A stretch of 64,000 nt of DNA, taken from positions 3,133,144 through 3,197,143 of the forward strand of contig CAJINV010000011.1 in NCBI GenBank assembly GCA_905178155.1. Direction: 5' to 3'. Below the pieces are notes generated by a model. That model was not told the origin of the DNA. It made no database searches and saw only the letters and a program-made list of their open reading frames with translations. Origin of the DNA: Amoebophrya sp. A120 (Eukaryota > Protista > Dinoflagellata). The position numbers and the translations under genes were made by a program. This document shows, in pieces, positions 17,501-64,000 of this stretch. Numbering within the stretch: the first letter of the stretch is position 1; the number at the start of each line of letters is the position of its first letter.

Positions 17501-19374
17501 CACAGGTGGCGATTTGATCCATCGGCTCCACGTAAATACACGTGATCACAGAGCCCCTATGCCCGGCCACTTCCGCTTTTAAATGGAGTTTCTTCGGATC
17601 GTAGATGCGGAATTTTCTTGACTGGGAAAAGCAGGCGAGGTAGTTCTTCTCTGGTAAATAAACCAGCCGTTCCACGTTCGCCTCGTGCTTCGATAAATCG
17701 GTCACGCTGCTTTCCTGGTAGGCTTTGGTTTCCAGCTGGGCGACAGCGCTGTGGTTTGGTTTGATGAACACCAGAACTAGAAGATTATAATACCAGCCTT
17801 TCGATGCCGACCGGTAGTTGCACCGGATTCATCCAAAAGCAAATAGCAAATGCATGAAATGATAAATGAACTTTCAAAACAATAAAACCCTTCTACCCGT
17901 CCATCTCGTTGCTTTGACTCTTGCCTTGTTCTATCAGAAGAGAGCTACACTCCTCCCATGTGATTTCTCCCACCGAGTGCACATCGATTTCCCGAAACAA
18001 TTCCACTATGGACGCTATGTTGAACAGCAGCGCATCCTCCGCTTCTCTTGCGGCGGCGTCTTCTTCGTTTTCTTCTTTCACCTCACCACCCTCCTCCCCT
18101 GCTTTCTCCTCGTCGGCGCCGCCACCGGTAATTCCTGTCACACTTATCCTCCCGGTTGCTGAACTACTAGTACCTTTTGCTGTTGCTTGTGCTTGTTGCA
18201 CCATAGAAGTTGTACCCGCGGCGGAGGGTGTCCGCATTTCACTCGGGGGCCCACTGCCTTTCGCCCCGACCTGTCGACTTTGCGGCCTGCTGGGCTGGGA
18301 TTCGGTTTCCTGGTTGCCATGGACGCTTTCCGCATCCTCGCCAGAATCGTGCTCGATCTCTTCTTCTTCTGTGCCGACAAAAAGCTCGAAGTTGACAAGC
18401 ACGGAGATTAAAAACCTAAAGTTATGGTTTATTCAACGAGATGCTGCACGAAGACCCATGCATAATCAATCTACTGGCATGATGCAAGAGCAAGACAGAT
18501 ACGGACATAACGTACTAAAAACTCTCCTAAATAAAAGTACTTTTCCAGATCCAGCACGCCGTCGTTTCTGTCGAAGTCGGCCTGCAGCTTCGCCAATTTC
18601 TCGTGCTCGAATAGTATTTGCAGCACGTATTTTTCCCGGTACTTGCACTTCCGTATCATTCTCCTTGCCAGCTCCGCATCCCTCTCTTGCATCTCGGCTA
18701 TTGTAATCGGTTTCACCTCGGTCGTCGGACTCCGCTCTTGCTCCGCCTGCCGCTTTATGCATTGCAAATATGTCTGGGTCTCGAAGATTGCAAGCTTGTG
18801 ATGGGCAGCTCAGAACACACAAAGATCTGTCATGCATAGATAGCAAAAGTTGCCCCCTATTTTCTGGGCACCGAAACCAGGGATCTGTCATGCGGACCAG
18901 GCATTGAGAAGCGTGCTCAAAACCTGTGATGCCAGGGCATGCATGCCAGAGCTTCTGAGTCATGCGGAGGCTGCATCACAAACCTCTGCTTGTTTCTAGA
19001 ACACCAGATGGCATATTTGCAATGCATACGCCTCCCCTGCATCTCGTGCAGACTCCGCAACCTCCTGGTTCGTTCATTCCCGACCTCGATCAGTGCAATC
19101 AAATGCAAAAGTGTCTGGGTCTGGAAGATTGCTGAGGTTTGTGATGCTGTGTCTGCTTGACACAGAAGGTGTGGCATGCAAAGCCTAGCATCACAGGTTT
19201 TGAGACGGCTTCCCAATGCGTAATCCGCATGACAAACGCCTTCTCTCGGCGACAGTAAAAAGAGCTCTTTTTGCTGTCCAAGCACGACAGATTTTTGTGT
19301 GATCTAAGTATGCATCACAAGTTCGTATCCTTCCAGACCCAGACGTAATTTTTGCAGTCGATAAGTGCGGGCAT
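14581..19374 (-). CDS. EF-hand plus WD40-repeat protein (WDR49/EFCAB8-like), multi-exon
   Basis: EF-hand-like ELFREIDVHSVGEITWEEC. WD repeats include GHRGSV..ICLWD, AHKAEVNDL..IASASSDCTIYLWD, GHKKSVLQL..LVWN and GHTHSLVGI..LRVWD. The N-terminus MPALIEVG...GRRQAEQ assembles in frame across two introners. Confidence 0.85.
18756..19028. mobile_element. Introner family 1 (TIR core tgtctgggtctggaag), 273 bp
   Basis: Ends tatgcattgcaaatatg...catatttgcaatgcata, TSD cgctt/cgcct. Removal gives QGRRQAEQ in frame. Confidence 0.85.
19097..19363. mobile_element. Introner family 1, 267 bp
   Basis: TIR gtctgggtctggaag/cttccagacccagac, TSD agtgc/agtgc. Removal gives MPALIEVG. Confidence 0.85.
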
Positions 19375-19953
19375 GTAACTACTCTTCGACGGGGAAAGCA
19401 CGCCACCATGCAGCTGGGACGGGACCCGGATTGACTCACCGCTCTCCATGGCTTGCGGTTCCTCGTGCGGGCACGGCAAGTGTTTATTTTCCCCCGGCGT
19501 TTATTTCTTGTGCAGTACCGGTTTATCGATTGCTTCGTCACCTCCAACCCGCGCGAGCGGCTGGGCGTACGGATTGATGTTCACATCTTGTTTTCGAAAA
19601 CCACCTCTCGATCAAAATTCGAAAAGCGTAGCGCTAGCGGGAAGCGGATCAGGTGTTACTCATTAATTGATCTTGTATTGGGGATTCTGATTTTCCTCTC
19701 GTTTCCCTCTTCAACTCTGAAGTTCTTGCCATGCGGCATGTCAACGAGAACAATTCTAGAACACACGAACGCGGCAGTGAAAATGCACTCTTTCGCGGAA
19801 ATGTACACTGTCCTCAAGGCTTACGGGTTTACAACATCACAGCAGCTGCAATGTCGCGTCGTTCGTACTACATTCCCAAAGCGTTTTGTTTGCGTTTGCG
19901 TATTCAAGTATTCAGTATTGCGCTCGTTCTGGTTCATTCTGAAAAAGATGGCG

Positions 19954-20976
19954 CTATGGTGTTGGTGCGTTTATTTCTACCACATCATTATACACCTCCG
20001 ATAAATCTAGAAGTTGTACGTCCTTATCCGCGAAATTTCTTCGGTTCAAAGATTTCATTTCCAAAACGGTTTTGAACTTTGGAAACCGTCCGGCGGTTCG
20101 AAGCTCCTGTGCCTTCTGACGGTTTACCTTTCCACTTTTTAACAACAGTTCCTCCACATACCCGCTGTAAGGCTCTTTCGACAGATCCACCGGACCGAAA
20201 TTCCGGTTGTGCGGCTCCAGGTTGCACCCGATGTGCTTGTGGTTCAACACCGAAGGGTCGTAGCACGAGGTGCCGATGGAAATGATGTACTTGAATGTCA
20301 GCGGTGGCTGCAAAACGTTGTAAAGCCATTTCTTCACCAGTGCTCGCTCCGGTAATATGTTCAAAGTGTCGAAGGTCATCACCATGTCGAAATTTTCGTT
20401 TTTCGGAAACACCTCCGGGTCCGTCACGTCGCCGACTCGGAAATCCAGTGTGGCATTCTTGTCATGCAGCAGTTCCTTCCACAAATTGCAGTGTTGGCAG
20501 AAGTAGCTGCGTTGTGTCAGATTCCTCTTCGCGTCTTCAATTCGGCCGTTTGTCGACTGGATCATGGCGGCGTCTAAATCCACGGCGAAAATCCGCACGT
20601 TTTGCGGCCAGTCGACGAACAGCTGCCAGCTGGTGGGCCAGTGCCCGCACCCGCTATCCACGACAGAGCGGATCTTTTTTTCCTTTATGAACGCGTTTAG
20701 CCAGGTACGGAGGCGTTGATTCACCTTCGGGTCCGACTCCTGGCCCCACAGGGCGCTGGTGATGAGGTTGTGTCGCGAGGATTTGAACCACGGAAGGTGG
20801 TGCGCGTAGTTGTGTTCTTGTTCATACACGCTCCAGAACTGCTCTGCTTCTTTCCCACAGAAGGTAGAACTGTGGCACTCGCTGCTCATGCGCGCGCGCA
20901 AGTGCGCGGGGTCGGCAATGGAAAGGGTCGGGAGGACGAAGAGGCGTAGCACTGGAGAGTTGAAATTGTGCCACAT
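19954..20976 (-). CDS. Class I SAM-dependent methyltransferase-like protein, single exon, possible signal peptide
   Basis: Motif I IRSVVDSGCGHW, then IFAVDLD, FRVGDV and FDMVMTFDTL. Hydrophobic N-terminus. Confidence 0.75.
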   Translation of the reverse strand: MWHNFNSPVLRLFVLPTLSIADPAHLRARMSSECHSSTFCGKEAEQFWSVYEQEHNYAHHLPWFKSSRHNLITSALWGQESDPKVNQRLRTWLNAFIKEKKIRSVVDSGCGHWPTSWQLFVDWPQNVRIFAVDLDAAMIQSTNGRIEDAKRNLTQRSYFCQHCNLWKELLHDKNATLDFRVGDVTDPEVFPKNENFDMVMTFDTLNILPERALVKKWLYNVLQPPLTFKYIISIGTSCYDPSVLNHKHIGCNLEPHNRNFGPVDLSKEPYSGYVEELLLKSGKVNRQKAQELRTAGRFPKFKTVLEMKSLNRRNFADKDVQLLDLSEVYNDVVEINAPTP

Positions 20977-21604
20977 TGAACCACTCAGAGGCTTGGTGAG
21001 GTGCGCGACTGCACGCTGCAGCTTGCTAAGCTCTCATCTCCTATTCAATAGAAAGCATACTAACTTACCCTCTTCGGTACGCGATTCGATTAGGACAGAC
21101 AAAAATACTTTGAAAAGACACAACTGAAAGCACTGTAAATCGGTCGTAGGTTGCCAACCTCCTGGAGTCAAGGGCTATCTCTCAATTTCAGCACGAAATA
21201 AAGCACAAAACCCATGGTGAAACACGCACCGCAACCACACCTAAGGCTAGCGATGCGCATGACTGTATGAGTCGCAACCACACCTAAGGCTTTAGCTTGA
21301 CCGCCTCGAACACGCTCTGCCACTTCTCCGTTTCTGGATTGAACTTTTCCTGCAGTTCCTGCTTCAATGCCTCTACTCATTATGATGGTACGGGGTCAGA
21401 ATTACAAGCAAAGAATGTCAGAAACATTGGATGCGCAGAAGATGTAGTTCCGTTCATTTTGGGTCAGCCAGAGAAAATTGAATAAATGCTTTTCATACAA
21501 TTGGGAGATTGCAATGGGGAAAGAGCTAGTTGTACAACAGTCAATCATACAAAGCGGAGACAAGCTTCTTTTGATACATTCCCCCACAGGAGGACACCAC
21601 GCCT

Positions 21605-23990
21605 TTACGCCTTGAGCACCACGGTCACGTAGTCCTTCGCGCGGGCGCAGAGCCAGCCGTTCCCGTTGCACTCCCGGTTCAGCTCGCCGTAGTGTCGGCG
21701 CTTCACCTGGTAGAACACCCAACCGCCGTCCAGCACAATCTGCCCCGCGCACAACACACTTTCGCCCACCTTGAACGCGGGGCCGGTCACGATGCAGCAA
21801 TCCGCGAGCGTCGGGCCGGACCGGGCGCGAAGCGGGACCGCCGATTTAGGCTGCACGATTTTCCGAATCATGCTGTTGAAAATCTGGATGGGCATCAAGT
21901 CCGGAACCGACTTCCAGGCGTCCGACTGCTGCGCGGAGGCGAGCGTCATGTTCACGAACGCGAGCGACATCTCCTTGTGCAGGGTCTTACTGCTGTTCTT
22001 GTCGCCCGTGTGAATGCCCAACCTGGTTGCCTCGTGGTGCCACGCGCGCCGGTCCCACAGTGTCCAGCCCTTCACACCCGGCATGCCGTTCGAGAGGCAG
22101 ACCTGTGAAAACAAACAAGGGTTGGCACAGTCAAATCATCTGTATCTGTAAAAAGCAGTAAAACTAAAAGCAACGCATCAAATAAAAGCAACGCATGCAA
22201 AGAAATATGATAATGTCGTCTCGCAGCACCGACCAAGCAGAAAAGAAAACCGTCCTTATCTATACCCAGTGACACAGCGGCTCCCCATACACCGGCTCTA
22301 TTCCGATCTGTTGCCACATCGTCCCCGGTGCAGCTTTCACAACGTTTCCGCCCGACGTCGCGTGCTCGAACCCCGGCTGCTCCCGTAGTGTCACGCTCGA
22401 GTCTGCTGTTATTGCGAAAAACAGCGGTGGTTGGGTCAAATCTTGCACAAACGCGGTTTCTTCCAGCGAAGAGGCCCACAGCTGAATCGGCTTCAGCTCG
22501 TTTTCCTGCTGTTTTTTGCGCAAGAAGACGTAATCCTCTTCGGTGGGTTTCAGCAATTCCCGCATAAATGTCTGGTCATCCTCGAGGAAAGATTGTTTCT
22601 CCGCGGCCTTCTGCGTCGCCGTGTCGAAAACCTTGGCCGCCAATTTCTTCTTGCTGTTCTTCCCCGCAGTTTGTATTTTCTGCGGACTCCCGGCCTCGCT
22701 ACCGGTGCCCTCGGCGTCCTCGGTGCTGTTACATTTGTGCGCTTGTTCAACAGTGTTGCAGCCTGAGAAGCAAAGACTGCAGAACCAAGGAGAAGAACAG
22801 GCTCCAGAAACAACCCCTGACATCAAAAAAAAAGTTTTATCATACTTGTTCCAAATGCTCTCTGTTTTCTTGACTCCGATGTAGTCGAAGGGTATTTTCC
22901 CCGTCTCGTCCCTTTGCAACTTATCCGCACCGTGCCTGACCAACACTTCCGCGCACATCGGTCGGTTCCAGATCACGCATTTTTTAAGCGGATGCTGCAC
23001 CTGCGGGTTGGCCTTGCAGGTTAACAGCAAATCTGCGATCCGGTGGTCGTCGTGCATGCAGGCCCAGAGCAGCGGCGTGAAATTGTTCCGGGGGTCGACG
23101 TAGTTGACCACTTCGAAGAGCGTGTCGTCGTAGGTGTGGAACGACTTCTCGTTGTTGGACAGCATCCGGGTTTGCATGAAGAACGTCCGGCCGCCCGGGG
23201 CTTCGGGGTCGCGGACCCGATCGACTTGCTGGATGGTGTCCAGAATGCGGATATCAAATGCAAAAGTATCGCACTCGTACGAATGGCAGCCCAGCCTGAC
23301 AAATCTGGTTTCATCTCGTTCAATTTAGCATTACAAATTCCAACATTTTTCCTTCTGGAGAAATTTGTATATGCTGTTCCTACTAGTACGATGCTCTTGC
23401 AATGCATAACGGACGCACTTGTTAAACTCCCCGCCCCTCACCGTGTCGAGGAACTCGACGCAGAAGTCGACGAAACGCTTTCTCGTCGCAAAGTCGGAAA
23501 TCTGCTTCTGCTTCTCCTCGTAGAGCCGCTGTCTTCTGGTCTTCACCTCGAACGGTTTATCCGCCGTTGCCTCTTCCGCCGTCGCCGGGCCCTCGGGACT
23601 GGGCGGCTCGGCGGGGGGCTTTTGGGGGAGCGCGACCTGGGCCGCAGCGAGATCCACGCCGGTTTGCTGCTGGATGCCGGCGATCTGGGTGTGAGAAGAA
23701 GTAGGAGAATCGTCAATACGGAACTTTGTGTCGAAAAAAAAGTCAAGTGATGCCTCCCATAGGCTAGGTTGAGTAACAAGTGTATAAAAACCAACCAATC
23801 ATACCGCCGAGTCCACGCGCTGCAAAGCCGGTACCGAAGCGGAGTCGACCATACTTGGTGGCTTGCCCGGCTCCGTTTCCGGCGGGGCCGGGCCGGCTGC
23901 TTTCGCAGCGGTTGGGGAAGTTTCTGGGGACACTGCGGAAGGAGAGCTCACTGCTACGGGTGCGGAGAGACCGGCTGATATTGTGTGGAA
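21605..23990 (-). CDS. Ankyrin-repeat protein with two possible SH3-like C-terminal domains (5' end approximate)
   Basis: FTPLLWACMHDDHRIADLLLTCKANP and CAEVLVRHGADKLQRDETGKIPFDY. GT-AG intron near 22103-22264 joins HW|VCLSNG. Introner at 23252 joins KCVR|ILDT. Confidence 0.75.
23252..23408. mobile_element. Introner family 3, 157 bp
   Basis: tatcaaatgcaaaagtatcgcact...agtacgatgctcttgcaatgcata, TSD gcgga/acgga. Frame restored on removal. Confidence 0.85.
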
Positions 23991-24093
23991 TTTTTCTTTT
24001 CAATGCGTGTAGTCCTCCGGAGAAGTTAGTACAACAACATTCATCATACAATGCAGAAATCAATGAGCGATTGATTTTTCAACTCTTTCTTCT

Positions 24094-24412
24094 TCAAATG
24101 TCAACGAAACTACTACACACAAGAAAATCAGTACGTCCCCTCCTCATTGTTTGCACCAAACCGAAATTCGGGGCCATCGCAGCCATGGGTCCGGGGGCGC
24201 GGACACGGTGAGACTCCTCGGCTCTGTGCCCACCGCGATCTCCCATCATGGATTTCAGGTGCTCATAATCCTCTCGGCCCATGCCGGTCGTCGTCCCCAC
24301 CTCATTGTCCGGCCGGGAAAAATCCTTCCGGTGGTGGTCCTTCGTGGCCGCGATCGGAAACGCCCGCATATTCGACATGGTGGGCGAAGATGGATTGGGC
24401 TCGTCAAGAAAC
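24094..24412 (-). CDS. Probable terminal exon, gene assignment uncertain
   Basis: Open frame FLDEPNPSSPTMSNMRAFP... preceded by a pyrimidine tract and TAG acceptor. Confidence 0.35.
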
Positions 24413-25268: not shown

Positions 25269-27910
25269 CTACCGCACCGGCCGATTGATGTCAGAAACAT
25301 CCTCCCACCGCTTGTGCGTCCTGAATCTTTCCAAAAGCGCATTCTTCGGAACTCGCGGACTTGCTCCGTCAATGTCCTTTGTCAGCAAATTATCGACCGT
25401 ATTCACGCCCTTGCGTTCGTAGAAGAGCTTCCTTGGTGAATTCAGCGCGATCGGGCCTATCTCATATTGCAGCCGGCTGCTGTTATTGATGCTGCCACCT
25501 TCTGTTGCAGCTCCTACGTGGTTAATATTCCTGTTGCTAGTATAAGTACCCACACTGCTCGGGGGCGCAGTTGCTTGCTGCTGAAGTAGATCTACAGGAT
25601 GCTGCTTATCGGAATTCTCCGATAAGCCTATCGGAATTCTCCCGGTCAATTTTGCCCTGCCTTCCAACTCGTCGTAGATCGTCTTTCCACCTATAATATT
25701 CTGTGCAAAAGCATCGTACTCGTAGTAATTGCTATCATGCATTACAAATTTTTTCTCTCAAGGTAAATCCGCATGAGAAATTTTATTTCTCATGCTGAGG
25801 GAATTTGTCATGCATTGATACGAGTACGATACTTTTGCACGGCATATACAATCGCGTGGGTGCGCGGCTGTTTGCTGTGATACGCTCCGAGAGCGTCAAA
25901 TCCGTATCCCTTATTCCTACCAGAGAAGGGGGAGTCCGAGTTTTCCGTCAACAATGTGTTCGTGTTGTACTCGGTTAAATCTCTTCCGTCTTTCTTCATC
26001 GGCTGCGGATCGTGGCCGATAGACAACAAATTGCTCCGCAAGCTGGTCGAATGAACGTTATCCACTTGCTGGTGGGCAAAAACCGGACCCTTTTCGATGT
26101 ATTCTTTGTGTTTCTGCTTTTCCATTCTACTTCTTTCCTCATCTTCGAGAAACAGGTGCTGAAACACGTCGCCATCCGTCTCTTCAAACCGCCTACTCGT
26201 CCACTTCTCCGGCGGGTCTTGCGGCTGACAACGCGGGTCATTTTTCCTGTTGGAAGCGATGATGCTGTCTTGATTCATACTGTTGTTACCGGGATTTTTT
26301 GTTGCTGGCGCTGGTGTTCTGCTGGTACTAAAATTAGTTGTATTCCCGCCACCGCCCTCCACAAAGTCGTCCAAATGCAGCGCCCTCACCCGCGCGCTCC
26401 GTCGTGGCGACACCGAATTGCTCTGCGTGTCATTCACTTGGGATCGGTCGTGGTTGGAAAAAACCTCCGCGTGCCACTGCCGGTTCTCTGTGTCCAAAAC
26501 CGCTTGCCGCTTGCCGCGGCTGGTGTAGTACTCCTCGTTGGAGTTGCCGGAACGCCGCTCGCGGTCGCGCCTGGAAGGAGTTATATCAGCACCCGACTCC
26601 ACTCCTTCATTCAACCTCGACTCGTAATCTTCTCGTGACACCACCGATTCTAAATGCGGTTGCTGCGATCCCATCGAAACACTCCTTTCGTACTCGCTCC
26701 ACTTGCCGGTTTTGTTCTGACGCCAGACGGTTTCCGCGACGAGCGGGTTGTCCTCGTAGTTCATACCTGACAAAACACAACTACTGGCCGGTTTGCTGAA
26801 CGATTTCACGTACTGCGGAGTTCTACCGCCCGGGGAGAGTTGCGCCGAACTTCTCGGCGTCACTGAACTGCTGTTAATATTTGCGGAAATAGTGGAACCA
26901 GGTCCCGCATGAGGATGATCCGTTGGTCTATCACAACCGTTGTGTAAATTCCCGATGTTCACGTTGCAGTGAGACGTTAGATTTCCGTCCGGATTCAAAT
27001 CACTCTCCCCCATCTGCTTCCGACTGCTCGACTCAAAAACCGGAATCCCTCCCCGGACGTATTGCTCCAAGATCTCCGGGTCCGGCCCGCCCATCGTGTA
27101 TTTTGGCGTCAAGGGGTTTCGGTTCGACCGCGGTGTTTTCCTGGGTGTACTACCGGGGATAACTGCTTGTGTTTGCTTCAAGTGATCCTGGACCGTTTCC
27201 TCCGTGATGGGTTTGTGCACCCTGCGGAAGTAGTTCGGAGTCGCGTACGGAATGGACAGTAACTCCTGTGGCACCTGGCGGAGAATTTCGATCTTCTTTT
27301 TCTCGTCCAGTTTCCCATCTGGCTTCGTCGACTGCCGGTATGGGGGTACCTCCGGCGCCGGTTCGTGGGAAGTCGCAAGCTTGTACTGCGGGTTCAGAGG
27401 GTTCAAGGGGGCTGTTTATGTGGTGGGTTTGCAGTAGTGTTGAAATGCGATAGAAAAAAACATAGATGTCGTGTTACTCGATCTAAAACTCATTTCCGAG
27501 TGAGGATGAGCATCACAAATAATAATTTAGCACAATCACAAGCAAAAAACAAAGACAATACGTCCCCTCGTTAAATCGTATCGTCTCCACAGTGGGTCCT
27601 TTTTCGGCTGCGCAAATTCTACGTCCTTTGTGTACAGCGAAGACGCCGGCGGCCGGTTTCTCGTCAGGTCATGTTTCGTCGGCTGCAGCTCCTTCGGGTC
27701 CCAGGGTGCCCGCGTCGCTGCGGTTTGGTAGAACTTGATCTTAGGCCTCGCGCCCTGAACGTCGTCGGTGCGCAGGTTATCGGACTCTTGTCGTGTCTTC
27801 GTGTGGAACTTCAACCCGTAGTCCTCCCGCGCGTCGATGGTCCGCAATGACATCGTCTCCCCCGCCGTGCGAATCGGCGTGCGGGGGGAGGGCGTGACGT
27901 GAGATGCCAT
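25269..27910 (-). CDS. Hypothetical protein with D(I/V)xGAxP and NPLxPxY motifs
   Basis: LRTDDVQGARPK, LYTKDVEFAQPK, LTKDIDGASPR, NPLNPQYKL and NPLTPKYTM in three ORFs. The last two ORFs join in frame across the introner at 25697. Confidence 0.7.
25697..25846. mobile_element. Introner family 3, 150 bp
   Basis: TIR gtgcaaaagcatcgtactcgta/tacgagtacgatacttttgcac, TSD tataa/tacaa. Removal gives HAI(V/I)GGKTIY. Confidence 0.85.
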
Positions 27911-28845: not shown

Positions 28846-31800
28846 TTAAATGTCCCCCAGCAGGCTCTTATCCAGATCCAAGAACTTCGGATCGGTAATC
28901 TTCCCCCGCAAGCAGCTCAGGATTTGCTGGAAGTACTCCTTCAATTCTTCCCGCGCATCGGCGTCCGCCATCCCGGCGGAGGTCCCTCCGGCCATCAAAG
29001 CCCGGCAGTGCTCCCGACATATCGTTAATAGCGTGTTGATTTGGAGCATGTTGATCTCCGGACAACCGTGCTGGTAGTAGTAGATGTAGTTGTCAAGAGT
29101 CTCGATGTATCAAAAGGAAAAATCCCCCCTCCCCATATTGAAAAGGCATGTTTCCGAAAATTTGTGTTGCTGATTTGAGGTCACAAATCGCATTTGTTTT
29201 GCAAGACGACAAGGGCAGAGGCTTCCGCCCCATTATGGAGGCGATTTGTCATGCTGTTGAGCCAACATCACGGACGCTTCTCATGCTAAGCGCCTAAGTC
29301 AAAGCATCTCTGCTCAGGCTTGATATGGGTCTGCAGTCCTCTCTAGCAAGACAGATGTGATTTGTGTACTCACATACAGCAACACAAATTCCGCTTTCGA
29401 TATGGGGAGGGGGGATTTTTCCTCACAATACGATGAACAGAATCACCATGTTCGGATTGGTGGAAACGCACTGCTCGGACACGCGCACGCATTTTATTAC
29501 AGTGAAAAGTGCCCCCCACCCCCAAAGTCGCAAAGATTTGTGATGCGAAGTTTCCAAATGGAAACTTTTTGTCATGCATGAAAGGAATACGAATCTTTCT
29601 GATGCAGATTCTACTTGTGTTTCGCATCGCTTGCATGACAAGCACCGCTCTTGCCGGGATCTTTTGCAATACAAATTTTTGCTATTCACGATCGGAAATC
29701 TGTGATGCTGATACATGCAAGAAGGCGAATGTTTCATTTGGAAAGGTTTGCAATACAAATGCTTTCAAGTTCGGGGATGGGGGCACTTTTCATTGCAATA
29801 CATTTCTGGAGGCATTCCTGCACTTTGGTGCCGGTTTGCCGGCACTTGTTCCAGAAGAGGTGGGAGCAGATGTTGATGGCCTTCACCTGTGTCGTTGGGT
29901 ATTAGAGACGGATTTTTTGTAAGACATAGTGGATAGAGAATATTGTGGTGTGAATAGCATGCAAGCATGATACTCATCCTTTTCGTTTCCAAGACAGTTG
30001 TTTTGTTCGCATGACTTCAAAATCGCGCACTAATAAGTACCTGCTGTGGCTTCTTGAGCAGCTTCGCCCCATATTGCGTCACTTTTGCTGCGAATCCGTC
30101 GTAGACAGCTTCTTCCAAGCAAGACAGGTTCTCCAGCACGCCGACGAAGAGATTTATGCAGCGGAACTGCCCCCGCGACTCCTGTATGTCCTCCTCGAAA
30201 ACCGCTAGACTCTGTTCTACAAATTCTGCGCAGATCTCCGCAAAGGCACCGGACCCCTGGTCGATGGCGTTCGCTATGCTCGCGGACTTCAGCCATATTT
30301 GCACCGCGGTTTCCGAGGCATTGCCGTTCAAGCCGGAGGAAAGGGTCTTGTGCACGAAAAGGAAGAATTTCTTTGAACTGATCTCTGGTATTTTGTAAGG
30401 GACTTGCGTGACGGGGTCCACCACACCGTTTTGCGCGGCAAGCTCACGAAGCCGGATTCGGGGAAGCAGGTCGAGGATTTTGTACCTGATAGAGTGTTTT
30501 TCCAAGATCATCATACGAACTACCCATGGTGACTGGCACGAAGCAGGTACATAATTTCATCGCTGAAATCAATGCTGGATCTAGAAACTGAAACCCAAAG
30601 CAAAAGAAAGCAAAGTAGAAATGCCGTATCTAATACAGCAACGTCGGCAGCGTGAACGCGAGTCGCTTTGGGCCGCCTGGTCCGAAGAAGCTTCTCAGCA
30701 CCGTGTAGAAAGCGAAGAGTCTGTCCGTATCCTGGTGTTCTATTTGGTGCACCAGTTTACACACCAGCTCCTGTTCGGTAGCGAATTCCTCTTCTTCTGG
30801 TACCGCTCCCGAATTACTCGATAATTGGCTACTTCGTGGGTTGTTCGGGTTGGCCGGTGTTCCACCTTGCTCTGGATCGTCTTGTAACAACGGAGTCAAC
30901 AACCGCAGCAGCCTCTTCAGGTCGTCCTCGTTTGTCAGCCGGATGTCGTTGTCCAGGACGATCTTCAGTAATCCCAGTGACACCTTCTTTCTCCCCCCGA
31001 AGTGGAGCAATTGAAGCAAGTTTGCGTAGTGTTCCAAAGCGAAGACCTGCAATCCCAATGCTCTCACCGGTTCGGACAGAATTTCTACGACGGATTCCAC
31101 TGCGTGGTAATCTTCCAATTTCATCAAGGTCGACTCCTCGCTGTCGTACCCAAGGTGGCGAAGGAGAAGATTGACACAACTGGAAAGGATGATATCCACG
31201 TAGCGAATAGCGGGTAAAGGGGTGGAGACCGCTGCTGGTGCTGATGTGCCGCTCGTCGGACTGGAACTACTTGGCGGGGGTTTGGAGTAGAGGGTAAGGG
31301 TGAAGTTCATGAAGGCGACCTGATTTCAGCATTTGAAAAGGAAATGAACCTACACGTAGTGAGAACAAACACTTAGATGAAAAACCTGTTCATCTTGAGT
31401 CATCTTTTGATCGCCCATGCTGTTGCTCATGCTCATCCCTCAGAAACAAGAATTTCCATAATAGACTACCCCATAATAGATGTACCTGCAACTCCAGCAA
31501 CGGCCCGACTTCGAGCGTTTGCGTGGCGCCGGAAAATGGTGTCGCGGGCTTGTCGACAATTTGGGAGAGAAAATTGTTGAACAAACCGAAAATGTCAATG
31601 TCGTCGGGAATGGTGTCTTGGGAGTTCTGCACAAACCGGGCTAGCCGGTTCATCAGCGTGACCACCACCTGCTTGAGGTCCACGCCCGGTTGCACCTGTG
31701 TGCACGCGCCGAGGAGCTTTTCCAAAGTGTAAAGGTGATAGTCGTCGGGGAAAACCTGATAATTTTAGGATTGGATATGTGCTGTGTGGTGACTCTGATT

Positions 31801-52600: not shown

Positions 52601-55600
52601 TTCGTGATGCGACGGAAATCCTGAGAGCTAATATCCGTAACTCACCTGCGTAGGGTTTGTGCTCCAATAGGTATTGCCGATCGGACCACAAATCTTACGC
52701 AGGTGACTTCCAGCAATTTGTTCCCAAGGATTTTCGCCACATCAAATACTAACTCCTGGGATGTCTGCGCACATCCGCGAAGTTCTCGGATGTGAGCTGA
52801 CACACGAGGAATTCTTGGATGTGAGTTCACGTCCGGGAGTTCCTCGGATGTGAAGTGCCATCCGAGAAGTTCTCGGATGTGGGGTGCACACTTCTGCAGG
52901 CCAGAGCACGAGAATGCTATCCGAGTTTGTGTTCTGACCTTGAAACACAGAAAAACCCGCACAACATCATCTTGGGCGGGGGCTTAGGAGAACCATGATC
53001 CCAGGTCTCGACGCGGCGAAAATCTTAGGAGCGCGCTTCTTTATCTCCCAGACGTCGGATGATTTTGCGCGAGGTCTTCAGACCTACTGCCGGCCAGAGC
53101 ACAAATCAGACGTGGGGGCCTTGCCGAAATGTGCTCCCAGAATTTCCGGCAAACCTTGGGAACGCATTTCCGAAAGGCTAAAGTGTGGCAGCTGCAGGGC
53201 GACCCCTTATATTGAAGGCGCGTTGCTTTGAACGACCTGGCGCTGAACACGAATCACTTGCAACATACTAGCACAGCAAGCGCGGCAGCCCCGCCGAAGA
53301 CGGCTGCCCATTCTCCGCCAAGCTCGCACGCTGGCTGCTTCCCAGCCACAGGGTTCATGGCCTTCGGCCATTCCAAGCGACTGCGAGAGTGTGCAAGCTA
53401 AACCCCCCTCGCGGTTTGTTTCCATTTTTTTCAAACCTAAGCTTTCGGGAACAAGGGTAGGAACTAATTTCTGTAAGCCTTAATAGGGACTAATTTCTGT
53501 CTGTCCGCGCCCGCAGCTGGTCATCCACCGCTGAGGACCCGCGGAGTCGTATCCTAAGTAAAAACGTACCCACACCAGAGTTGTCATGCAGATTTGCAAC
53601 GACAGGAACATTTGTAATGCGCATCTGCATGAGAGGCATTTCCAGTCGTGTTTTGACATTTGTAATGCTGTAAACACGATGAGGAGATGGGTTTGTCATG
53701 CGGCTGCACTTGCTAACCTGCACTACACTGCGGAGTGCAACTTGTCATGCGTGACTCACAAAACTCCTAGGTTTGTGTTGCAAAATCGCCATCCTGACTC
53801 TGGTGTGGGTCCGTTTTTACTCAGGATAAGTCGGCGTGGTCCTGCGGGTAGGGAGGGAGAGGCACACCAGCAGCCAGACCTGCTGTATTTGATGTGCCAA
53901 ATGGTGCTGTCGTTGACGCAGTAGAGCCGGTGTTGACAGCGCTGTGGCTGTCCTGCTGTTGATTCATATTAACCCTATCCAACTTACTCGTCCCGGAAGA
54001 CGATGCAGTCAGACTGGTGCTGGCTGTCAGGATTGAGGGTCTAGCAGCTTGTTGCTGTTGCCCCCCGGTGGTCGTGCACTGGTTCATCATTCCGGTTCCT
54101 GGGCAATGAAAAATGCTGTGGTCCTGTAGATTATCCTCTTCTAAATTCCGAACACCGAGCCGCTCGCAGGCATAGGCGTAGAGCCACGGCTCCAGCTGTA
54201 GTGGGATTGGAGGTTTTTTGCATTTTCTGCATGTTGTATTTGAATGATGAAGATGAGCAAGGAAGGAGAAACTTGTACCTCCGAATGGTCTCAGGGGAAC
54301 GAACGAACTGCAGTGAAACTAAATAAGTATCAAACAACGAAAAAATTACCTTGTGCTTGCTCAGAATTTTTTCGTTCTCGAAGAGTTCCTTGATGAAGTT
54401 CATTTGGTTCACAATCGCTTGCATTTCCGGCTGCCGTATGCATTGCAAAAATGTCTGGGTCTGGAAGGTTGCAGCTTGTCATGCTAATTCTGGATAGTAC
54501 AGAAATTTTTGTTGCATGATTACCAAAAGGCGTCCACGTTTGAACAAGTTTAGTGGCAGTTTGTCATGCAGGATAGACATGATAGAGACTTCGCAGAACC
54601 TGTCATGCTAGGTCCTGCATTGCAGACCTCGTGGGGCATGCAAAGTATGCATGACAAGTTTGCATTCTTCCAGACCCAGACATGTTTGCAATTGATACGC
54701 CGGTAAGCGGGAGAGTGGGAGAGTAATTTCCAGCCCTCGAAGAGCGAGATCCGGTACATTCGTTGGTCTCGAAAATCGTCCTGGAAATCAAAATCCTCGT
54801 TGTTGTTGTAGAATTTCAAAGAATTCAAATTCAAGCTGCACATCCCCGTCAACTCGTAGATAACGGCTTCAAGTGCGAGGTGTTTTGGTAAAGTGGCCAT
54901 CGTTGCAGCAGCAGCAGCAGCAGGTGCTTCTCCAATAGACGTGTTGTCATCTTCAGCTGTATTCGACGCAGAGAGGATGCTGCTCTCCCCGTCTTCTGCT
55001 GCGGGGAGCTGATGATGTTGATGTTGAGTGGTTGTACTGTCATTGCAACCACTTTTTCCGGCCCCGCCAGCCGGACTCGAGGAAGACGCTGCCGCGCACC
55101 AGTTGTCCACTTCCTTCACGCACGTCGGTAACCGCACCCAGCACCACGTCCGATGCTTCAGCGCTACCATGAGCAGCATCGCCGCTTGGATTAGGGAGAG
55201 CGGCTGGTGGATCAGAGATAAAGGTTGTCCGAGCACCAGTTCCTGCGTTTTCTCCACGTCGTACAGCAAACCGAGAAACACCCGCACTTTCAGCAACTCA
55301 CAGGGCATGGTGCGCGGGAGGAAGGGAAGATTGTTTTTCATGATCCCTCGACCAAACTGCTGATTTTTATGTAGTTCGAGATTGTTTTTGTTCTGGCCAT
55401 CATGTACGCTCAGCAATACTTCTTCCTGCAGCTCCCCCGACCTGGTCGCGCCTTCCTTGTTCTCCTGCGAAGAAGAATTACAACCTCTACCCCCGTTCGC
55501 TTTTTCTACGGCGGTGAAAGCCATTTTCACCTTCAGCATCGCGGTCCGCGAGTGCCTTACGTCTTTCGGGGGCTGGTGCTGGTCTGGGCCAGTCGTCGCC

Positions 55601-58600
55601 ACGACGACATTGCTCCCGACGCCCGAGGCAGCGGTCGATGCGCCGGCAAGGGACGAGGAATGAGAGGTACTTAGTGGGTCTTGCTCCACCTGGTGCGCAA
55701 CTTTTAACGAGTAGATATTTTCTGTTTCAACATTGGTGTCAACCACACGATCTACTTCCGCGTTGCCTGCCTCTTCACTGCAAAAGTGTTGTGATGATGA
55801 ATTCTGGTTCTTCCTACTTCTCCCTTCCGTCGCCTGCATGACTGCCGCTGCAGAAAGCGTTCCCGGCGGCGCGGTGGTGTTGAGCCGCAGGCTCGCAGAT
55901 CTCGCGCCACCATCTTCCCTTGCATAGAAGCCATCCGAGGACTTCTCCCCTGAGTCGTCCGTGTCCGGAGATAACAGCATCTCCGACCGTCGGCGCTGCT
56001 CCAGCGGGCAGGAGAGGGACAGCTTCTGGATAATTTCCGGAGATGAACTGGTCAGTTGGCAGGGCGAACCCGCTCGCGCGGCCACTGGAGTTCGAGCCTG
56101 ACGGAGAAGGCTGTTGGAACTCGACTTATTCTGAACACTTATGGATCTGTCAGGATTGAAATCGTCAAAGTTGAAATGATTTGTCATGCATAAAGCCGAT
56201 ACCAGTTGGCGGCCAGCTTTCAAGTGGCGCATGACAAATTTAGGAAGAGCATAAATCCAGTTTGTCATGCTGTTTGGGTACGGAGGACGCCCTTTGTCAT
56301 GCTACTTTAGCATCTCTTTTCTTACCCCTCAACAGGCTTACAATCTGCCTCACTTGACTACCTTGCAAGACAGGCACTTTGTGGGTTGCATTTTATGCAT
56401 CACAAACTATTTCAACTTTGAAGATTTCAATCCTGACATTTCCATAACACTGTTGTTCAAAGTTGAGGAACTCGGTTCTTCGAGCGGAAGGTCAGAAGTT
56501 CTGTCTTGATTCATGCCATCTGCGGAAGAAGATGCTGCCCCAGCAGGTTGGACTGATGCAGCCGCTGGAATGATGCGCCCGGACGGGGACACCGCGACAT
56601 TGCCCTGCGGTGTACAACTGTGTGGATAACCACCACCACCAGCTGCGTTCATGTGCGAAGGAGCAGTGTGAGGATGAACTCCAACGCCAGGACCTTGATG
56701 TTGTAACCCTCCAGCAGCTCCTCCTGGGTACACTCCAGCAGCATTATTCGGTTGCTGCATTCCGTACGGCAAACCTCCGCCGTTCGCGTAGTTGTAGCAG
56801 GTGGCGTTATAGGCGTTCATATACGCCGCGTGCTGTTGCGACTGCATCTGCGCCGTCGCCATGGCTTGTTGCTGCTGAAAGTAGTTACAACTTTGCGGAT
56901 GGTGCGGCTGCGCAGTGTAGATCGGCTGTGATGTCCCGTGGCTGTTATAAGCACCTGCTGGTCCTCCGTGTGCACCAGCTGCTTGGCCATGTGCCATCAT
57001 GTGCGGAGCTCCAGGTCCTCCGGGAGGTGCTGGTGCGCCGTAGTTATGCGGATGTTGGTGCTGCGCCCCTTGTGGCGCGGGATAGAATCCAGTCGGCATA
57101 GGACCGTTCATAGTGCCGATTGGCTGCTGGCCGCCTGGTGGGTACATCATGTTCGGGCTAGTAGTATTGTTGTACTGGTTGTAAGTTGTACCCATATTAC
57201 CGGTGGGCATCGACATGTGCTGCGGAAAGGTATGTTGCGGAGGAGGTCCGTGTTGCAAAGTCCCCGGGTTACCTTGTTGCGCGTTGCTAGTGTTCATCGG
57301 AGCTACGGTTCCAGGCGGCCCCATACCGCCTCGGGCGTTGCAATTCACGTTATTGTTCACAGCATTGTCTACTGAAGCGCCACCTGTCGCCCCGTTGTGA
57401 TTATCCTCACCCCCATTTGACGCGGTGGGCATGGACAAATTGCTGATCCCCGGGACGTTCACGGGATGAAAGCTCTGCGGGATGGAAGCAGCGGTTGGGA
57501 CGTTCTGCCGGTTTTGCACCATTTTCGAGCGCAGGTTTCCGTATAGTTTCTGAATTTGATCCCGCGCTATCCGCAACATCACCGTCAGATTCGTGTCCGT
57601 GTGCTGCAAGATCTGCTGATCGAAGTTCACCAAAGCCACTGCCGCGCAGCTAGACCGGTTAGAGTGTTGCTCTTTCACGAAGGAAAACCTTTGGTGGTTT
57701 TTCATTTTGATTTTGATTTTGTTTTTGTATCCGTCATCCGCATGAAGACGGAAAGAGAATATGATTTTATCGGAAACAACATACAAACAAAAATACTTGA
57801 TATGCGTGGTCTGCAGGAGCGAGGAGAACTTGGAGACCATGGAAGCCGCAATTCTGTTCCGCTCTAACCGCAACACGCAGGGAGTGAAGACTTCCCGCCC
57901 ACTCTGCTCGTCCCGATCCAATTGCGGGTACAGGTGAGACAGGTACCCAAAAGCGAAAAGGAGGGAAAAAACGCCTAAAGGCGTCACTTGGTTGTATGAA
58001 CTGCAAAAGTATCTCACTCGCATAAATGCATTACAAATTTCCTCAGCATGAGAAATATAATTCGTAATGCTGATTTACCTTAAGGAAAAAATTTGCAATG
58101 CATGATTGCAATTGCTACGAGTACGATACTTTTGCACAGGATAGGTTGTCGGAGAGGACAATCTCGCGGAAAGGGTGCGTCTGTTGCGATTTTTGCATGA
58201 AATGATGAAGAGCATGTTTTGCATGACAAACTGAGTTCTTTCACAGCATGACAAAAAAACTGGGCAAGAATCGTATTGATACGTCACAAATCCTCGCTGT
58301 CCTTCAGATTTCGCATCACAGATCCGGACCCGGACATATTTGCGATGAATGTAAAAGTAATGAAATAAATACCTGGAGCAAGATGATTTTCGCCAAGTAG
58401 ACCAGTGCGACGTCGCACAATTTGTTGTGGTCCAGCCGCAGACAGCGGATGGAAATTCGGTGCTGGATCAGCAGGTCGAATGCAAAAATGTCTGGGTCTG
58501 GAAGATTGCGATTTGTCATGCAGGTTTTCCCTGCCCTGTGAGGTCTGGTGTGCGGGATATAGCATGACAGATTCTGTGAGATCTTCTTTCTCATGCCTAG

Positions 58601-59696
58601 CCTGCATGAGAGACTTCCTCTCAAATTTGTCGAAGGTGGACAGCTCTGGGTAACCATGCAACACAGATTTTTTCACAGTGCAGACTTAGCATGGCAAGTG
58701 GAAACCTCCTAGACCCAGACATATTTGCAATGCATAGAGCAAATCGCAGAGGTGTTGCATCACATCGGCGTCCACATTCTTCCCGGCCAAGTCGAGTTCC
58801 TCCAACACGTGCCCTCGGGGGAGCTGCCCGAGAGAGAACTGCCCGTCGACCACCGAAGGTGGAACAACAGTCGGACTAGCAGAAGGGATATTGGCATTGG
58901 CAGCGGCAGAGGAGCAGGACTGCTGTAGTTCTACTCGCGGACCCGGTCCTCGTGCAGTAGAGACTTCTGCGGCCTCTGCTGTTGTACCAGTTCCACCGAC
59001 AAGAACCACCCGGCTGTTCATTGGCTTCTTGGGCCAGACCTGCCCTTCTTGCGCGGGTGGCTTGCTCTCGCTAGTTAATTCCTCCTCCCCAAAAATGTGC
59101 GGGATGTCCTCGCTCTGCTCGCGGCCACGAGGTAGACTTTGATGAGTTGTTGCAAGAACTTCTACGCGGTGGTCTTTTTTGTCTTCCTCTTTATGTTCCT
59201 TTACATTTTCGTTTTGCTCCGTGCTTAAACTTGTTTCAGTTGCCAGGTTGTTGCAATTCTCCTCATCCTGATTCCCGCCCTGCAGCCGTTCTTCTTGTTC
59301 CGCATGATAATTTTCCGGGGGCGCAGCTGCCCCGTCGCTCCTCTCCTCGTGTAGTTCATCCCCTAGATCTTCGCTTTCTTGTTGCAACAGCACATCTTCT
59401 CCCTGTACCGCTAGTTTATTCTGCTCGCCCGTTGTTGCTCCTACACTGCAGCTTTCCTCCGAGCACGCTGGTGAGGCTTGCAAATCATTGTCCTCACTTC
59501 TCGCTTGATCCGGACTGGAAGTACTTCCCGCCGGTAGCTCCTCTGCAGCTAAATCCTTCGTATTTTCCGCATGATCCTGCGCGCTGGCACCGAACGCAGT
59601 GGCTGCACGACCTTCCGGAGCTGCATCGGGCTCGCCTTGCAATCCGGTAGTCGTACCTGATAGGGAAGAACGCTCGATGTAAGCATCTAGATACAA
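49644..59696 (-). CDS. Large LRR (RNI-like) and Q/P/G-rich low-complexity protein, many exons (ends approximate)
   Basis: Reassembled LEELDLAGKNVD..IRCLRLDHNKLCDVA..REIVLSDNQVTPLG..VLRLERNRI. The frame is continuous across each of eight TIR elements. Some other junctions were not verified. Confidence 0.7.
50683..50891. mobile_element. Introner family 4, 209 bp
   Basis: tgtcgcaagaaaaaa...ttttttcttgcgata, TSD caaga/caaga. Removal gives STSCSAQQQ. Confidence 0.88.
50987..51248. mobile_element. Introner family 1, 262 bp
   Basis: Perfect ~32-bp TIR tatcaaatgtaaaaatgtctgggtctggaaga, TSD ggatg/ggatg. Removal gives GQRHPKLNL. Confidence 0.93.
51323..53483. mobile_element. 2,161-bp foldback-like TIR element, predicted to act as an intron
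   Basis: TIR ttagagctttcagaaattagttcc / ggaactaatttctgtaagccttaa, TSD taggg/taggg, multiple internal copies of the TIR motif and a TCTAGA-rich core. Removal gives TEISPYPQD in frame. Confidence 0.82.
53550..53828. mobile_element. Introner family 2, 279 bp
   Basis: tatcctaagtaaaaacgtacccacaccagag / ctctggtgtgggtccgtttttactcaggata, TSD agtcg/agtcg. An empty paralogous site lies at about 51301. Confidence 0.93.
54437..54697. mobile_element. Introner family 1, 261 bp
   Basis: TIR atgtctgggtctggaag, TSD tgccg/cgccg. Removal gives PAYR(Q/R)PEMQ. Confidence 0.9.
56140..56446. mobile_element. Introner singleton, 307 bp, ~50-bp imperfect TIR
   Basis: tatggatctgtcaggattgaaatc...gatttcaatcctgacatttccata, TSD acact/acact. 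Removal gives LNNSVQNKS. Confidence 0.9.
57995..58143. mobile_element. Introner family 3, 149 bp
   Basis: tatgaactgcaaaagtatctcactcg...cgagtacgatacttttgcacaggata, TSD ggttg/ggttg. Removal gives LSDNQVTP. Confidence 0.88.
58474..58736. mobile_element. Introner family 1, 263 bp (left terminus decayed)
   Basis: TIR core present, TSD cagca/gagca. Removal gives LCDLLIQHRI. Confidence 0.85.
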
Positions 59697-61174: not shown

Positions 61175-64000
61175 TCACTGGACCCATTGTTCTTTTAGGT
61201 TTTTGATGGAAAGAGAGTAGTTGTTTGTAAAGTACTCTATTTTTAGAACAGCCGCAAAGCTACCAGCCATGCTGACCTGTGCCAGCGCCGGCGAGAAAGA
61301 ACGCTGGATCAGGTTTATCCGTGCGGACGACGCAGAGGAGCAAGCTGCTCCTGTTCTTCTAGCACAGTATCGACGATCCACCAGCACAACAAAATAACTA
61401 TGCGTCGTCTGATTTAAATCAAAAAAAACGGGGAAAAAGATTCGTCGCCGACTATTTTATTTACATGTGGGGAAGAAGTTGGTACAATATCGTCGCCAAT
61501 TTTCGTGTAAAAAGAAAAACCAGCACAACTTTACTCTTATCTACTAGGGGTCGTCGTGTTTACTCCGAGCGGGTCTACATGATGTGAAGAACTTTACTAT
61601 TGGGGTTTTCAGTCCTTGCTGCTCGTCCAGGACAACGAAACTGTCTTCAGATGGGAGAGGACGCCGAGGTTGTATTTGTTGGCACACTTACCTTGTAGCT
61701 CCATTTGTCATCTACCGGTGGCTTACTCCCAACTGGAACTAGCTGGTACCTTGTCCGCTGCGCGTCACTGAAGCACAGTTTCAGCTGATCTTTGCTCTCC
61801 AGGTCCTGTGTAGGTAATTGCTTTTCAACATCTTCCCGAGATAAATTTTCAACATTTTTTTCACTACTATAATCGAAGGGGCGTAAAATCATGGCCACCG
61901 AAAATGAATCGATATAATAGAGAAACTGTTCAAGGAGCATATTTATAAACAAGTACCAAAACTTCCCCCATGACCAGATGCGGGCTGCTTCCTTTCGCGT
62001 ACGCCTTGCCTTGTCCACCAGGTTTGTTCCCCGCATTGTTCGCCGAGGTGACGTAGACAAACATCTCTATGGGATAGGGCGGGGAGAGACACGAATCTAA
62101 AATGTGAAACACGTCCGTTCCACTATTCGTAAACGCCTTGTAGACCGCAAGCAAGAGTTTCCTGAACTTCGTCCTCTGTTCTAGCTCGTATCAAATGTAA
62201 AAATGTCTGGGTCTGGAAGATTCTGAAACTTGTCATGGGCCACGATGTCTGTGATGCATGCCCTAGCATCACAGACTTTTTGAGGGCTTCGTGACGCGTA
62301 TTCCGCATGACAAATGCCCTCGCCGCGTAGCCAAAATTGCATTCCCTTTGCTGGTCATGCAATACAAATTTTTTTAGAATCCAAATGCAGCATCACAAGT
62401 TCGGATTCTTCCAGACCCAGACATTTTTACGTTTGATAGCTCGCCGAATACCACCACGCAAAGACTGTCCCCGTCGTGGTTCGCGGAGTACTGGTAAAAA
62501 TGGGAATCCGACAACTTTCCCCCTTTTCCAGCGGCCCGCATGCCCCCATTCGCCGAGGGAGAGACGGAGCTAGCCGTTGGGGAGTGACTTGTGCTGTTCC
62601 CACTATTATTCCCTGTTAGTGCCACCACTGCGGAATCCGTAACCCCGGTCGCCTTCTCGAGAATCTTTTTTCGTTGCTGGAACCAGTCGACCAGATCCGT
62701 CGCGGACAGAGCAGGAGTCGATCCCGGGTTGTTCGGAGAGGCCGGAGGTATGGGTTGATGCAGTTGATGTTGTTCCCCTATTGCTGCTGCACTTTGGTTA
62801 GTACCACTGCTATTGCCCGAAGCTCCTGTTGATCCACCACCTGGTGCTCCTCCCGGCGCACTACCAGAACCCGCTGCTGACGTCGCTCCCGTGGGTGTCC
62901 TGGCAGTAGTTGTACTGCTGGAAGATATTAAACCTCTGTCGGAATTTGCGTTTACAGGAGTGACGTTTCCCGCCCCAGAAGTTGTTGTGTTAGAGTTCTG
63001 TGCTTGCTGTGTCGCACCGCCGCTGTTGCTGGACCCTTTGGAAGATGAACTAGAGCTGGACCCTCCGCCGGTGTTGTTACCACCACCAGTGATGCACTGC
63101 AGATGGAAAATATCTACTGCTTTTCCCTCGCACTGAGAAATGAACCTCCGATCCAACGGCCTGCCCTCGTCGTACGTGAGTCTTTTCAAGTCCTTCAACT
63201 ATCGTAAGCAAAAACGTCCCCACCCCATAGTCAAGTTGGCAAATCTGCAACACAAATCCCCAACCTTTGGGAGTTGTGCATGACAAGTTCTTTCCGTCTC
63301 TAGTATAGTGGTGCTTAGCAAGGCAAGCCGCATGAGAAAGCCAATTTCTCATCCTGTTTACAGCATTACAAATGCCAAATCACGATTAGAAATAGAAATG
63401 CCTCTCATGGGGATGCGCATTACAAATGTTCCTGTCATTGCGCATTTGCATTACAGCTCTGGGGTGGGGACGTTTTTGCTGAGGATATCAACTTCCGTGA
63501 AATCATGGCGTCATCCCCCACGGCTTTGGCAGAGACGCCGAGCCGCTCCACCCCGTTCCCCAGCAGGGTTTCGATCTCCTTGGGGGACTATCAAATGCAA
63601 AAATGTCTGGGTCTGGAAGGTTCTAGACTTGTAATGCTGTCGCTGGATTGTAAAAAATTTGTATTGCATGACCAGCCAGAGAACTCCAGTTTGTGGCACG
63701 CGGAGAGGGCATTTCTCATGCGGCAGAGGCATCGCAAAGTCCTCTAAAAATCTATGATGCTAGGGCATGCATCACAGACATCATGGGCCATTCCAAATAT
63801 GCATGACAAACCTGGTAATCTTCTAGACCCAGACATTTTTGCATTTGATAGGGATAGCGCGAGCTTCGTGCGGCTGTCGCCCTTCCGGCAAGGGTTCGGG
63901 GGCTCCGCGGCCATCCGCCCATTCACCGACTGCGCGGCAAAATGAACTTTGATGTAGGCGGCGAGCTGTGATGATTTTCATCAATCTTGAGTAGAATCTT
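61175..64000 (-). CDS. Hypothetical multi-exon protein, 5' part beyond window end, 3' end uncertain
   Basis: In-frame assembly across three introners: KLALS|PKEIETLL...ISRKL|KDLKRL...VFGEL|EQRTKFRKLLLAVYKAF. Confidence 0.7.
62189..62438. mobile_element. Introner family 1, 250 bp
   Basis: Near-perfect ~32-bp TIR, TSD gctcg/gctcg. Frame restored on removal. Confidence 0.93.
63200..63487. mobile_element. Introner family 2, 288 bp
   Basis: tatcgtaagcaaaaacgtccccacccca / tggggtggggacgtttttgctgaggata, TSD tcaac/tcaac. Frame restored on removal. Confidence 0.92.
63589..63850. mobile_element. Introner family 1, 262 bp
   Basis: tatcaaatgcaaaaatgtctgggtct / agacccagacatttttgcatttgata, TSD gggac/gggat. 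Frame restored on removal. Confidence 0.92.

Follow-up and report, generated by a model that had tools for sequence, protein, structure and literature searches.

A 64,000-nucleotide (nt) stretch of Amoebophrya sp. A120 (contig CAJINV010000011.1, positions 3,133,144 to 3,197,143; hereafter the window) contains 17 introner elements with TAT...ATA ends that lie in exons between target-site duplications (TSDs) of 5 bp. They are removed from the transcript precisely, each together with one TSD copy, and their borders offer no GT-AG pair. On balance, we read them as non-autonomous DNA transposons resembling miniature inverted-repeat transposable elements (MITEs), probably taken out by a relaxed major spliceosome for which the terminal hairpin acts as a ruler.

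The window comes from the host in which such elements were described: one of its exons is 100% identical to the annotated A120 protein P0001, and the P0001 alignment, which spans 59815-49647, lacks seven of the TAT elements and a further element with TTA ends. Farhat et al. 2021 (PMC7789003) reported A120 introner ends consisting of TAT, 7 variable nt and at least three A residues, with direct repeats of 3-5 nt at the borders and one 5-bp example in the legend of Fig. S19. The same authors recorded no A120 transposase. Gozashti et al. 2025 (PMC12130899) listed 58 A120 introner families, including fam38, labelled 'Ginger' with '5-bp TSD, TA/TA Termini', and a Mutator-like GG/CC family with TSDs of 8-9 bp. 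The phenomenon is therefore published for A120 (the first-pass annotation of this sequence had already remarked that such introners are reported for Amoebophrya genomes), and the 17 elements fit the introner elements of Farhat 2021 as ordinary members of a described class. The fixed 5-bp TSD, the bracketed cut and the donor-like asymmetry reported here are refinements not found in the parts of the literature compared, a comparison outside which lie the Farhat logos (Fig. 3/S19-S25), supplementary file 14 of Gozashti and Roy et al. 2023.

Scans for inverted repeats with flanking duplications recovered all 17 elements of the seven sequence types proposed in the first-pass annotation, with lengths of 149-323 bp, and a homology-bounded rescan regained 16 of them, the exception being 56140 (elements are named by their first position). 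Alignment scores of the terminal inverted repeats (TIRs) ranged from 12 to 30; three block-shuffled windows reached no more than 12, and their pairs never had more than 3/5 flank matches. All host genes lie on the minus strand; TAT stands at the sense-5' end in 17/17 elements, and an A-run occupies positions 11-13 in 16/17, being shifted in 56140. One decayed end each was confirmed in 19097 (AAT), 50683 (TGT) and 58474 (GGT, all in plus-strand reading), in every case the sense-3' end. The description of the TSDs as exact 5-bp duplications held for the ten that had been listed, all perfect 5-mers, but not for the remaining 7/17, which have one mismatch each (18756, 23252, 25697, 45420, 54437, 58474 and 63589). 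The absence of GT-AG on sliding the junction proved general: GT/GC...AG ends occurred in 0/18 elements (17 TAT plus the TTA element) in any register from -3 to +8, which separates them from canonical U2 introns. Short length, TIRs, a fixed TSD, no coding capacity and a single target copy at one paralogous empty site are the features of MITEs.

RNA evidence was taken from assembled contigs of one sample. Four runs were mapped on 18300-30100; on 44200-64000, where the DNA-like run X6 dominated the joint table, joints were read from contig pieces of run X1 and from length sums. These sums were done by hand, with intron borders from the P0001 alignment, a register scan and spliced translation. In the following list, k is the number of upstream-TSD bases that leave with the intron.

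18756..19028, minus strand: family A introner, TAT..ATA; TSD cgctt/cgcct; joint 18750>19029, skip of 278 nt, 4/4 runs; RNA has the right copy at the mismatch (k at most 3)
19097..19363, minus strand: family A introner, decayed sense-3' end; TSD agtgc; joint 19091>19364, skip of 272 nt
23252..23408, minus strand: family B introner; TSD gcgga/acgga (k at least 1); joint 23247>23410, skip of 162 nt
25697..25846, minus strand: family B introner; TSD tataa/tacaa (k at most 2); joint 25691>25847, skip of 155 nt, 2/4 runs
29108..29430, minus strand: introner in VPS35; TSD cgatg; joint with skip of 328 nt
29495..29800, minus strand: introner in VPS35; TSD cattt; joint with skip of 311 nt
45420..45628, minus strand: family C introner upstream of DUF2009-domain exons; TSD cggca/cggcg; frame restored in silico
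50683..50891, minus strand: family C introner, decayed sense-3' end; TSD caaga; RNA piece end, 671-nt sum and P0001 alignment
50987..51248, minus strand: family A introner; TSD ggatg; 671-nt sum and P0001 alignment
51254..53860, minus strand: about 70 bp of coding sequence duplicated in tandem on either side of the TTA element; near 51300, the copy is a version of the 53550 site that has no element and a single agtcg
51323..53483, minus strand: 2,161-bp TTA..TAA element with an A25-like end; TSD taggg; longest stop-free frame 159 aa; 671-nt sum and P0001 alignment
53550..53828, minus strand: family D introner; TSD agtcg; 671-nt sum and P0001 alignment
54437..54697, minus strand: family A introner; TSD tgccg/cgccg (k at least 1); RNA piece starts at 54699; protein has Q at the junction
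56140..56446, minus strand: introner of its own family; TSD acact; adjacent RNA pieces ending at 56446 and 56133
57995..58143, minus strand: family B introner; TSD ggttg; 329-nt sum and P0001 alignment
58474..58736, minus strand: family A introner, decayed sense-3' end; TSD cagca/gagca (k at least 1); RNA piece starts at 58738; 329-nt sum and P0001 alignment
62189..62438, minus strand: family A introner; TSD gctcg; RNA piece end; 226-nt sum with canonical intron 61805-61955
63200..63487, minus strand: family D introner; TSD tcaac; RNA piece departs from the genome at 63194; frame
63589..63850, minus strand: family A introner; TSD gggac/gggat; frame restored in silico

Within 18300-30100, all six elements showed direct joints that skip exactly the element plus 5 nt, five of them in 4/4 runs and 25697 in 2/4, alongside seven ordinary minus-strand GT-AG joints. 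Removal of 56140 was bridged by adjacent contig pieces, and three gaps between RNA pieces equal the exon sums obtained when each element leaves with 5 nt: 329 nt with 58474 and 57995 removed, 671 nt with 54437, 53550, the TTA element, 50987 and 50683 removed, and 226 nt with 62189 removed. RNA support thus covers 14/17 TAT elements (7 direct joints and 7 exact length sums), extends to one side of 63200, and gives way to the in silico frame for 45420 and 63589. Removal regains the C-terminus of VPS35 (spliced translation; Pfam PF03635 on the upstream exons), whereas retention leaves 6-19 stops per frame. Loss of the element plus one TSD had been claimed to restore the frame, VPS35 included, and transcripts had been named as the check; the contig joints and the spliced translation bear this out, with no GT-AG in any register.

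To characterize the same elements in a larger sample, we used a metagenome scan that yielded 133 loci, all from assembly JACKZZ01, of which 122 (663 kb) were left after contained loci had been dropped. This assembly represents a sibling strain, with A120 proteins matching at 78-99% per piece. Among 324 TAT...ATA pairs picked regardless of their flanks, 254 had an exact 5-bp TSD and 294 had one with at most one mismatch (shuffle mean, 1.25), while exact TSDs of length 3, 4 and 6-10 were found in at most 9 cases each, near shuffle level, and a 6-bp exact TSD in none. These counts support a 5-bp TSD fixed across the TAT families, and TSD length did not vary freely. When the element plus 5 nt was removed, an 80-codon frame was open in 296/363 cases, compared with about 180 for frame-shifting controls.

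Several sibling loci showed individual features. The locus L062:1137-10533 has 21 introners in 11.3 kb on one strand, and their removal gives frames of 432 and 554 aa. At L071:8799-8978, the TSD copies match at only 2/5 positions, yet the A120 protein skips the element, so an intact direct repeat is apparently unneeded for removal. Rare 8-bp and 7-bp duplications flank TAT...ATA elements at L038:10329-10608 and L089:76-330, and L060:14722-15294 is a long hairpin element, rich in GC, whose ends do not resemble TAT...ATA.

Mismatched TSDs allowed the cut to be placed. RNA at 23252, 54437 and 58474 gives k of at least 1, 25697 gives k of at most 2, and 18756 gives k of at most 3; if one register holds, these five constraints leave k = 1 or 2, which puts the cut 1-2 nt upstream of TAT and, correspondingly, 4-3 nt downstream of ATA. 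Stop codons in the sibling strain ruled out both k = 4 and k = 5 at L071:8799, k = 4 also at L038:7532 and k = 5 also at L040:8376. At L071:9055, the A120 protein P0005 has the residue of the 5' copy at a position-4 mismatch, favouring k of at most 1, although the difference between the strains keeps this support for k = 1 modest. One further A120 protein was compared and held no informative mismatch. A fixed register is likely, as against a floating cut, and the form N|TAT...ATA-NNNN (k = 1) appears the most probable, with good confidence; a cut 2 nt before TAT and 3 nt after ATA (k = 2) seems unlikely, and a variable register more unlikely still. Stop-codon exclusions of k = 0/k = 1 at L002:2123 and L047:6200 were dropped because these sites proved non-coding or mis-bounded on inspection, as was an exclusion at L060:14869, which has 0/5 TSD matches and lies inside a different hairpin. 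In Table S4 of PMC7789003, the predominant sites are NT-NN in 9/9 for A120 and TT-NN in 9/9 for A25; these fit the register but were given no independent weight, since the motif preference of aligners can yield them.

With k = 1, the intron starts N-T-A-T, which places TAT at donor positions +2 to +4 and leaves +1 and the last two bases free. The canonical donors of the window read GTAT or GTAC in 10/12 cases. To compare decay at the two ends, a codon model was used to call gene strand, which succeeded for 399 of the 438 homology-bounded sibling elements (at least 4/5 TSD matches, at most 600 bp), with 55 candidates with poorer TSDs left out of this set; 66 of the 399 have naturally mismatched TSDs. 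All 16 window elements used as controls were called correctly, though the window exons were in the training set. Departures at end positions 1, 2 and 3 numbered 1, 2 and 14 at the 5' end, 12 of the last being TAC, and 9, 3 and 4 at the 3' end (Monte Carlo p=0.0013). Strand mutation bias fails to explain both asymmetries, because they run in opposite mutational directions, and at position 3 a model based on pairing alone would predict the opposite, because a U-G pair survives in GTA whereas TAC gives a C-A mismatch. The 5' end thus appears to retain TA and to drift to TAC as GTAY donors do, which favours a spliceosome reading N-UAY together with hairpin geometry over pure end-pairing.

Predicted folds pointed the same way. 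Positions 9-13 were paired in 17/17 elements, outer pairs were often open, and terminal pairs 1-7 were mostly unpaired in 23252, 57995 and 58474, all of which are still removed. Stems in the sibling set showed no bias of G-U over A-C (292 vs 284). The proposal of the first-pass annotation that splicing recognises the paired termini does not agree with broken outer pairs in spliced elements, with the pair-breaking TAC or with the missing wobble bias.

In the mechanism that we favour, an integrase-like DDE transposase of the IS3EU/Ginger type, acting in trans, may insert the MITEs with a 5-bp stagger, a step with less support than the others. A relaxed major spliceosome would then read U+2 A+3 Y+4 and disregard +1 and the 3' dinucleotide, with a lariat and small nuclear ribonucleoprotein (snRNP) basis presumed, and the terminal hairpin would serve as a ruler from which the 3' cut is measured. 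With TAT at both ends, a donor is offered in either insertion orientation. The TTA element and the A25 TT-NN sites would fit the U+2 A+3 rule if the cut lay directly before TTA. According to PMC7789003, A120 has nearly all spliceosome proteins and U2, U4, U5 and U6, with U1 undetected. A more specific version, in which a U1-less spliceosome without +1 G or 3' AG reads U+2 A+3 Y+4, makes a hairpin-measured cut 4 nt past ATA and perhaps uses a branch at the A seven nt from the end, is put forward as a tentative possibility.

Several results weigh against this reading. By our own calculation, independent random registers would meet all five RNA constraints in about 19% of cases, the constraints fit k = 1 and k = 2 equally, and codon models did not separate the registers in the filtered sibling set, with an unfiltered run nominally favouring k = 2. 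In PMC7789003, the splice sites are described as varying in position with respect to the hairpin. The prediction of less decay at 5' than at 3' ends overall failed, since total decay was equal (17 vs 16 of 399; 15 vs 14 in another tally) and the 0-vs-3 pattern of the window is not general; the per-position asymmetry test was post hoc and covers 33 events. Among sibling elements, neither G at +1 (102/333) nor AG at the 3' end (25/333) exceeded the exon background, although an excess of this kind might be expected of a spliceosome that retained some preference. No transposase turned up in a Pfam search of 24 proteins from the window (two frames that overlap the TTA element among them), 145 long sibling open reading frames lying outside the scan. 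The raw-read runs X8 and X9 mapped 4 and 0 reads, and the RNA support consists of the contigs of one sample.

The main rival, close to the idea of the first-pass annotation, is a dedicated non-spliceosomal nuclease/ligase that recognises the hairpin and cuts at fixed offsets, as has been proposed for Euglena; we consider it rather unlikely, though it deserves serious weight. Such an enzyme would suit the long terminal stem predicted in every element, the lack of selection on +1 and the 3' dinucleotide, the undetected U1 and the removal of the TTA element and the reported GG/CC family, and its offsets would be asymmetric like those of Euglena (N3 and N5-6; PMC12501133). It would, however, have to act on 23252, 57995 and 58474 with pairs 1-7 largely open, and to tolerate a C-A mismatch as the commonest end change (12) rather than a U-G wobble (3) in stems that have no wobble bias; the identity of the 5' motif with the canonical donor at +2 to +4 would also be left aside.

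An improbable alternative keeps splicing but lets the cut float within the 5-bp repeat, the donor likeness being a coincidence of transposase-imposed ends. Only five mismatches are resolved by RNA, and the variable sites of PMC7789003 and the mixed annotated junctions of large A120 families (in fam2 of PMC12130899, 5' NT in 6,681/9,716 and 3' AN in 6,598/9,716) are what a floating cut would give. Yet k = 1 agrees with every one of the five RNA constraints, with three loci where stop codons are informative and with one protein comparison, and end decay is strand-asymmetric. In the annotated junctions, CT is about as frequent as AC and GT as AG, as would be expected if aligners blind to strand had picked mirror registers.

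Hairpins flanked by direct repeats are a classic template-switching substrate. That the joints reflect reverse-transcriptase template switches across elements of this form, or excision from DNA, is very improbable, with less weight against rare excision because the DNA-run joints considered are 15 of 490: retention closes the VPS35 frame, joint depth equals the depth of the whole transcript contig, the sibling locus with 21 elements over 11 kb has long frames after removal, and contigs of the DNA-like run X6 run into the element ends at the borders listed.

Comparison with known systems placed the elements nearest to the A120 introners of PMC7789003, with which they share TAT + 7 nt + AAA ends, direct repeats, similar size, RNA-supported removal and, as far as that description goes, the lack of an internal transposase. 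They differ in having a 5-bp TSD across families and a cut bracketed 1-2 nt before TAT, where that paper gives repeats of 3-5 nt and variable sites, and the presence of an A25-like TTA element in A120 departs from its description. The A120 families of PMC12130899, compared by description only, are likewise TIR DNA introners of about 105-350 bp in thousands of copies, but are mostly unclassified, with automated TSD calls of 2-11 and no common register in that description. The TA..TA termini (TAYGG..CCRTA) of IS3EU/GingerRoot elements (PMC10045372, PMC12730594) are found in the window elements. IS3EU TSDs, however, are usually 6 bp, a length with no exact case among the 324 sibling pairs, and for this reason the TAT elements were not filed under IS3EU; Ginger2, in the same sources, has TSDs of 4-5 bp, a range that includes the 5 bp of the window.

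The nonconventional introns of Euglena (PMC12501133) resemble the window elements in their TIR-like ends, sliding direct repeats, lack of GT-AG, suspected MITE origin and asymmetric offsets. Their signature, N3CDG...CH'GN5-6|R, which belongs to a process proposed to be non-spliceosomal, differs from N-TAT...ATA-NNNN or NN-TAT...ATA-NNN, and unlike in Euglena the 5' motif in the window resembles the canonical donor of the host itself. The introners of Fritillaria borealis (PMC11282704, bioRxiv 10.1101/2025.08.15.670264) are also transposon-derived introns with TIRs and TSDs and are removed by a modified U2 spliceosome; they prefer the end dinucleotides AG-AC and AG-AT, whereas +1 and the 3' dinucleotide of the window elements match exon background.

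The TAT families may share one transposase lineage. A GCATGACAA-like internal motif, chosen by eye, occurs in 17/17 TAT elements (10.7 per kb vs 0.26 per kb background), and together with the common TAT-N7-AAA ends and TSD length it makes a single lineage, as earlier suggested, plausible for these families. As an exclusive grammar, TAT...ATA is not upheld, since the TTA...TAA element is likewise removed and PMC12130899 reports the GG/CC family with 8-9-bp TSDs. No long coding copy was found among TAT-ended pairs up to 12 kb in the small sample of 663 kb of sibling loci, the element end patterns had no exact matches in viral or prokaryote contig collections, and Rfam gave no match in the window.

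The TTA element at 51323-53483 had been missed in the first inspection, and its removal is required by the 671-nt sum and by P0001. It has many internal palindromes, and the internal motif shared by the TAT families is absent from it; further copies are suggested by loose contig ends and a raised DNA depth. In the coding duplication of about 70 bp around it (51254-51322, 53484-53860), the spacer resembles part of the element's inverted repeat and is translated as TEIS in P0001, which suggests a transposon-linked exon duplication. Within the canonical GT-AG intron at 58181-58372 lies a decayed sequence that resembles an element and matches sibling loci at about 73% identity over 110 nt; it is possibly an old introner turned into, or inserted in, a canonical intron.

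Other repeats were also observed in the window. Positions 1-11100 hold a long array of degenerate 108-bp (36-codon) repeats, apparently coding on the minus strand, in which the end scans found no introner. An exact 57-bp direct repeat (47674-47730 and 49215-49271) and a repeat of about 200 bp with 76% identity (48477-48691 and 49017-49215) are unrelated to introners.

More than 60% of Amoebophrya introns are removed without GT-AG, and how this happens has been a question since 2021. Mismatched TSDs can reveal the true cut site from existing RNA-seq, and the donor-like U-A-Y signal predicts lariats and snRNP dependence. If the U-A-Y rule is true, any TIR transposon with TAT ends in A120 or TTA ends in A25 would be a ready-made intron, in either orientation and in any target, which would account for invasion by tens of thousands of copies. 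It would also show how far a spliceosome can relax, and why the insertion of a DNA transposon into an exon has no apparent cost.

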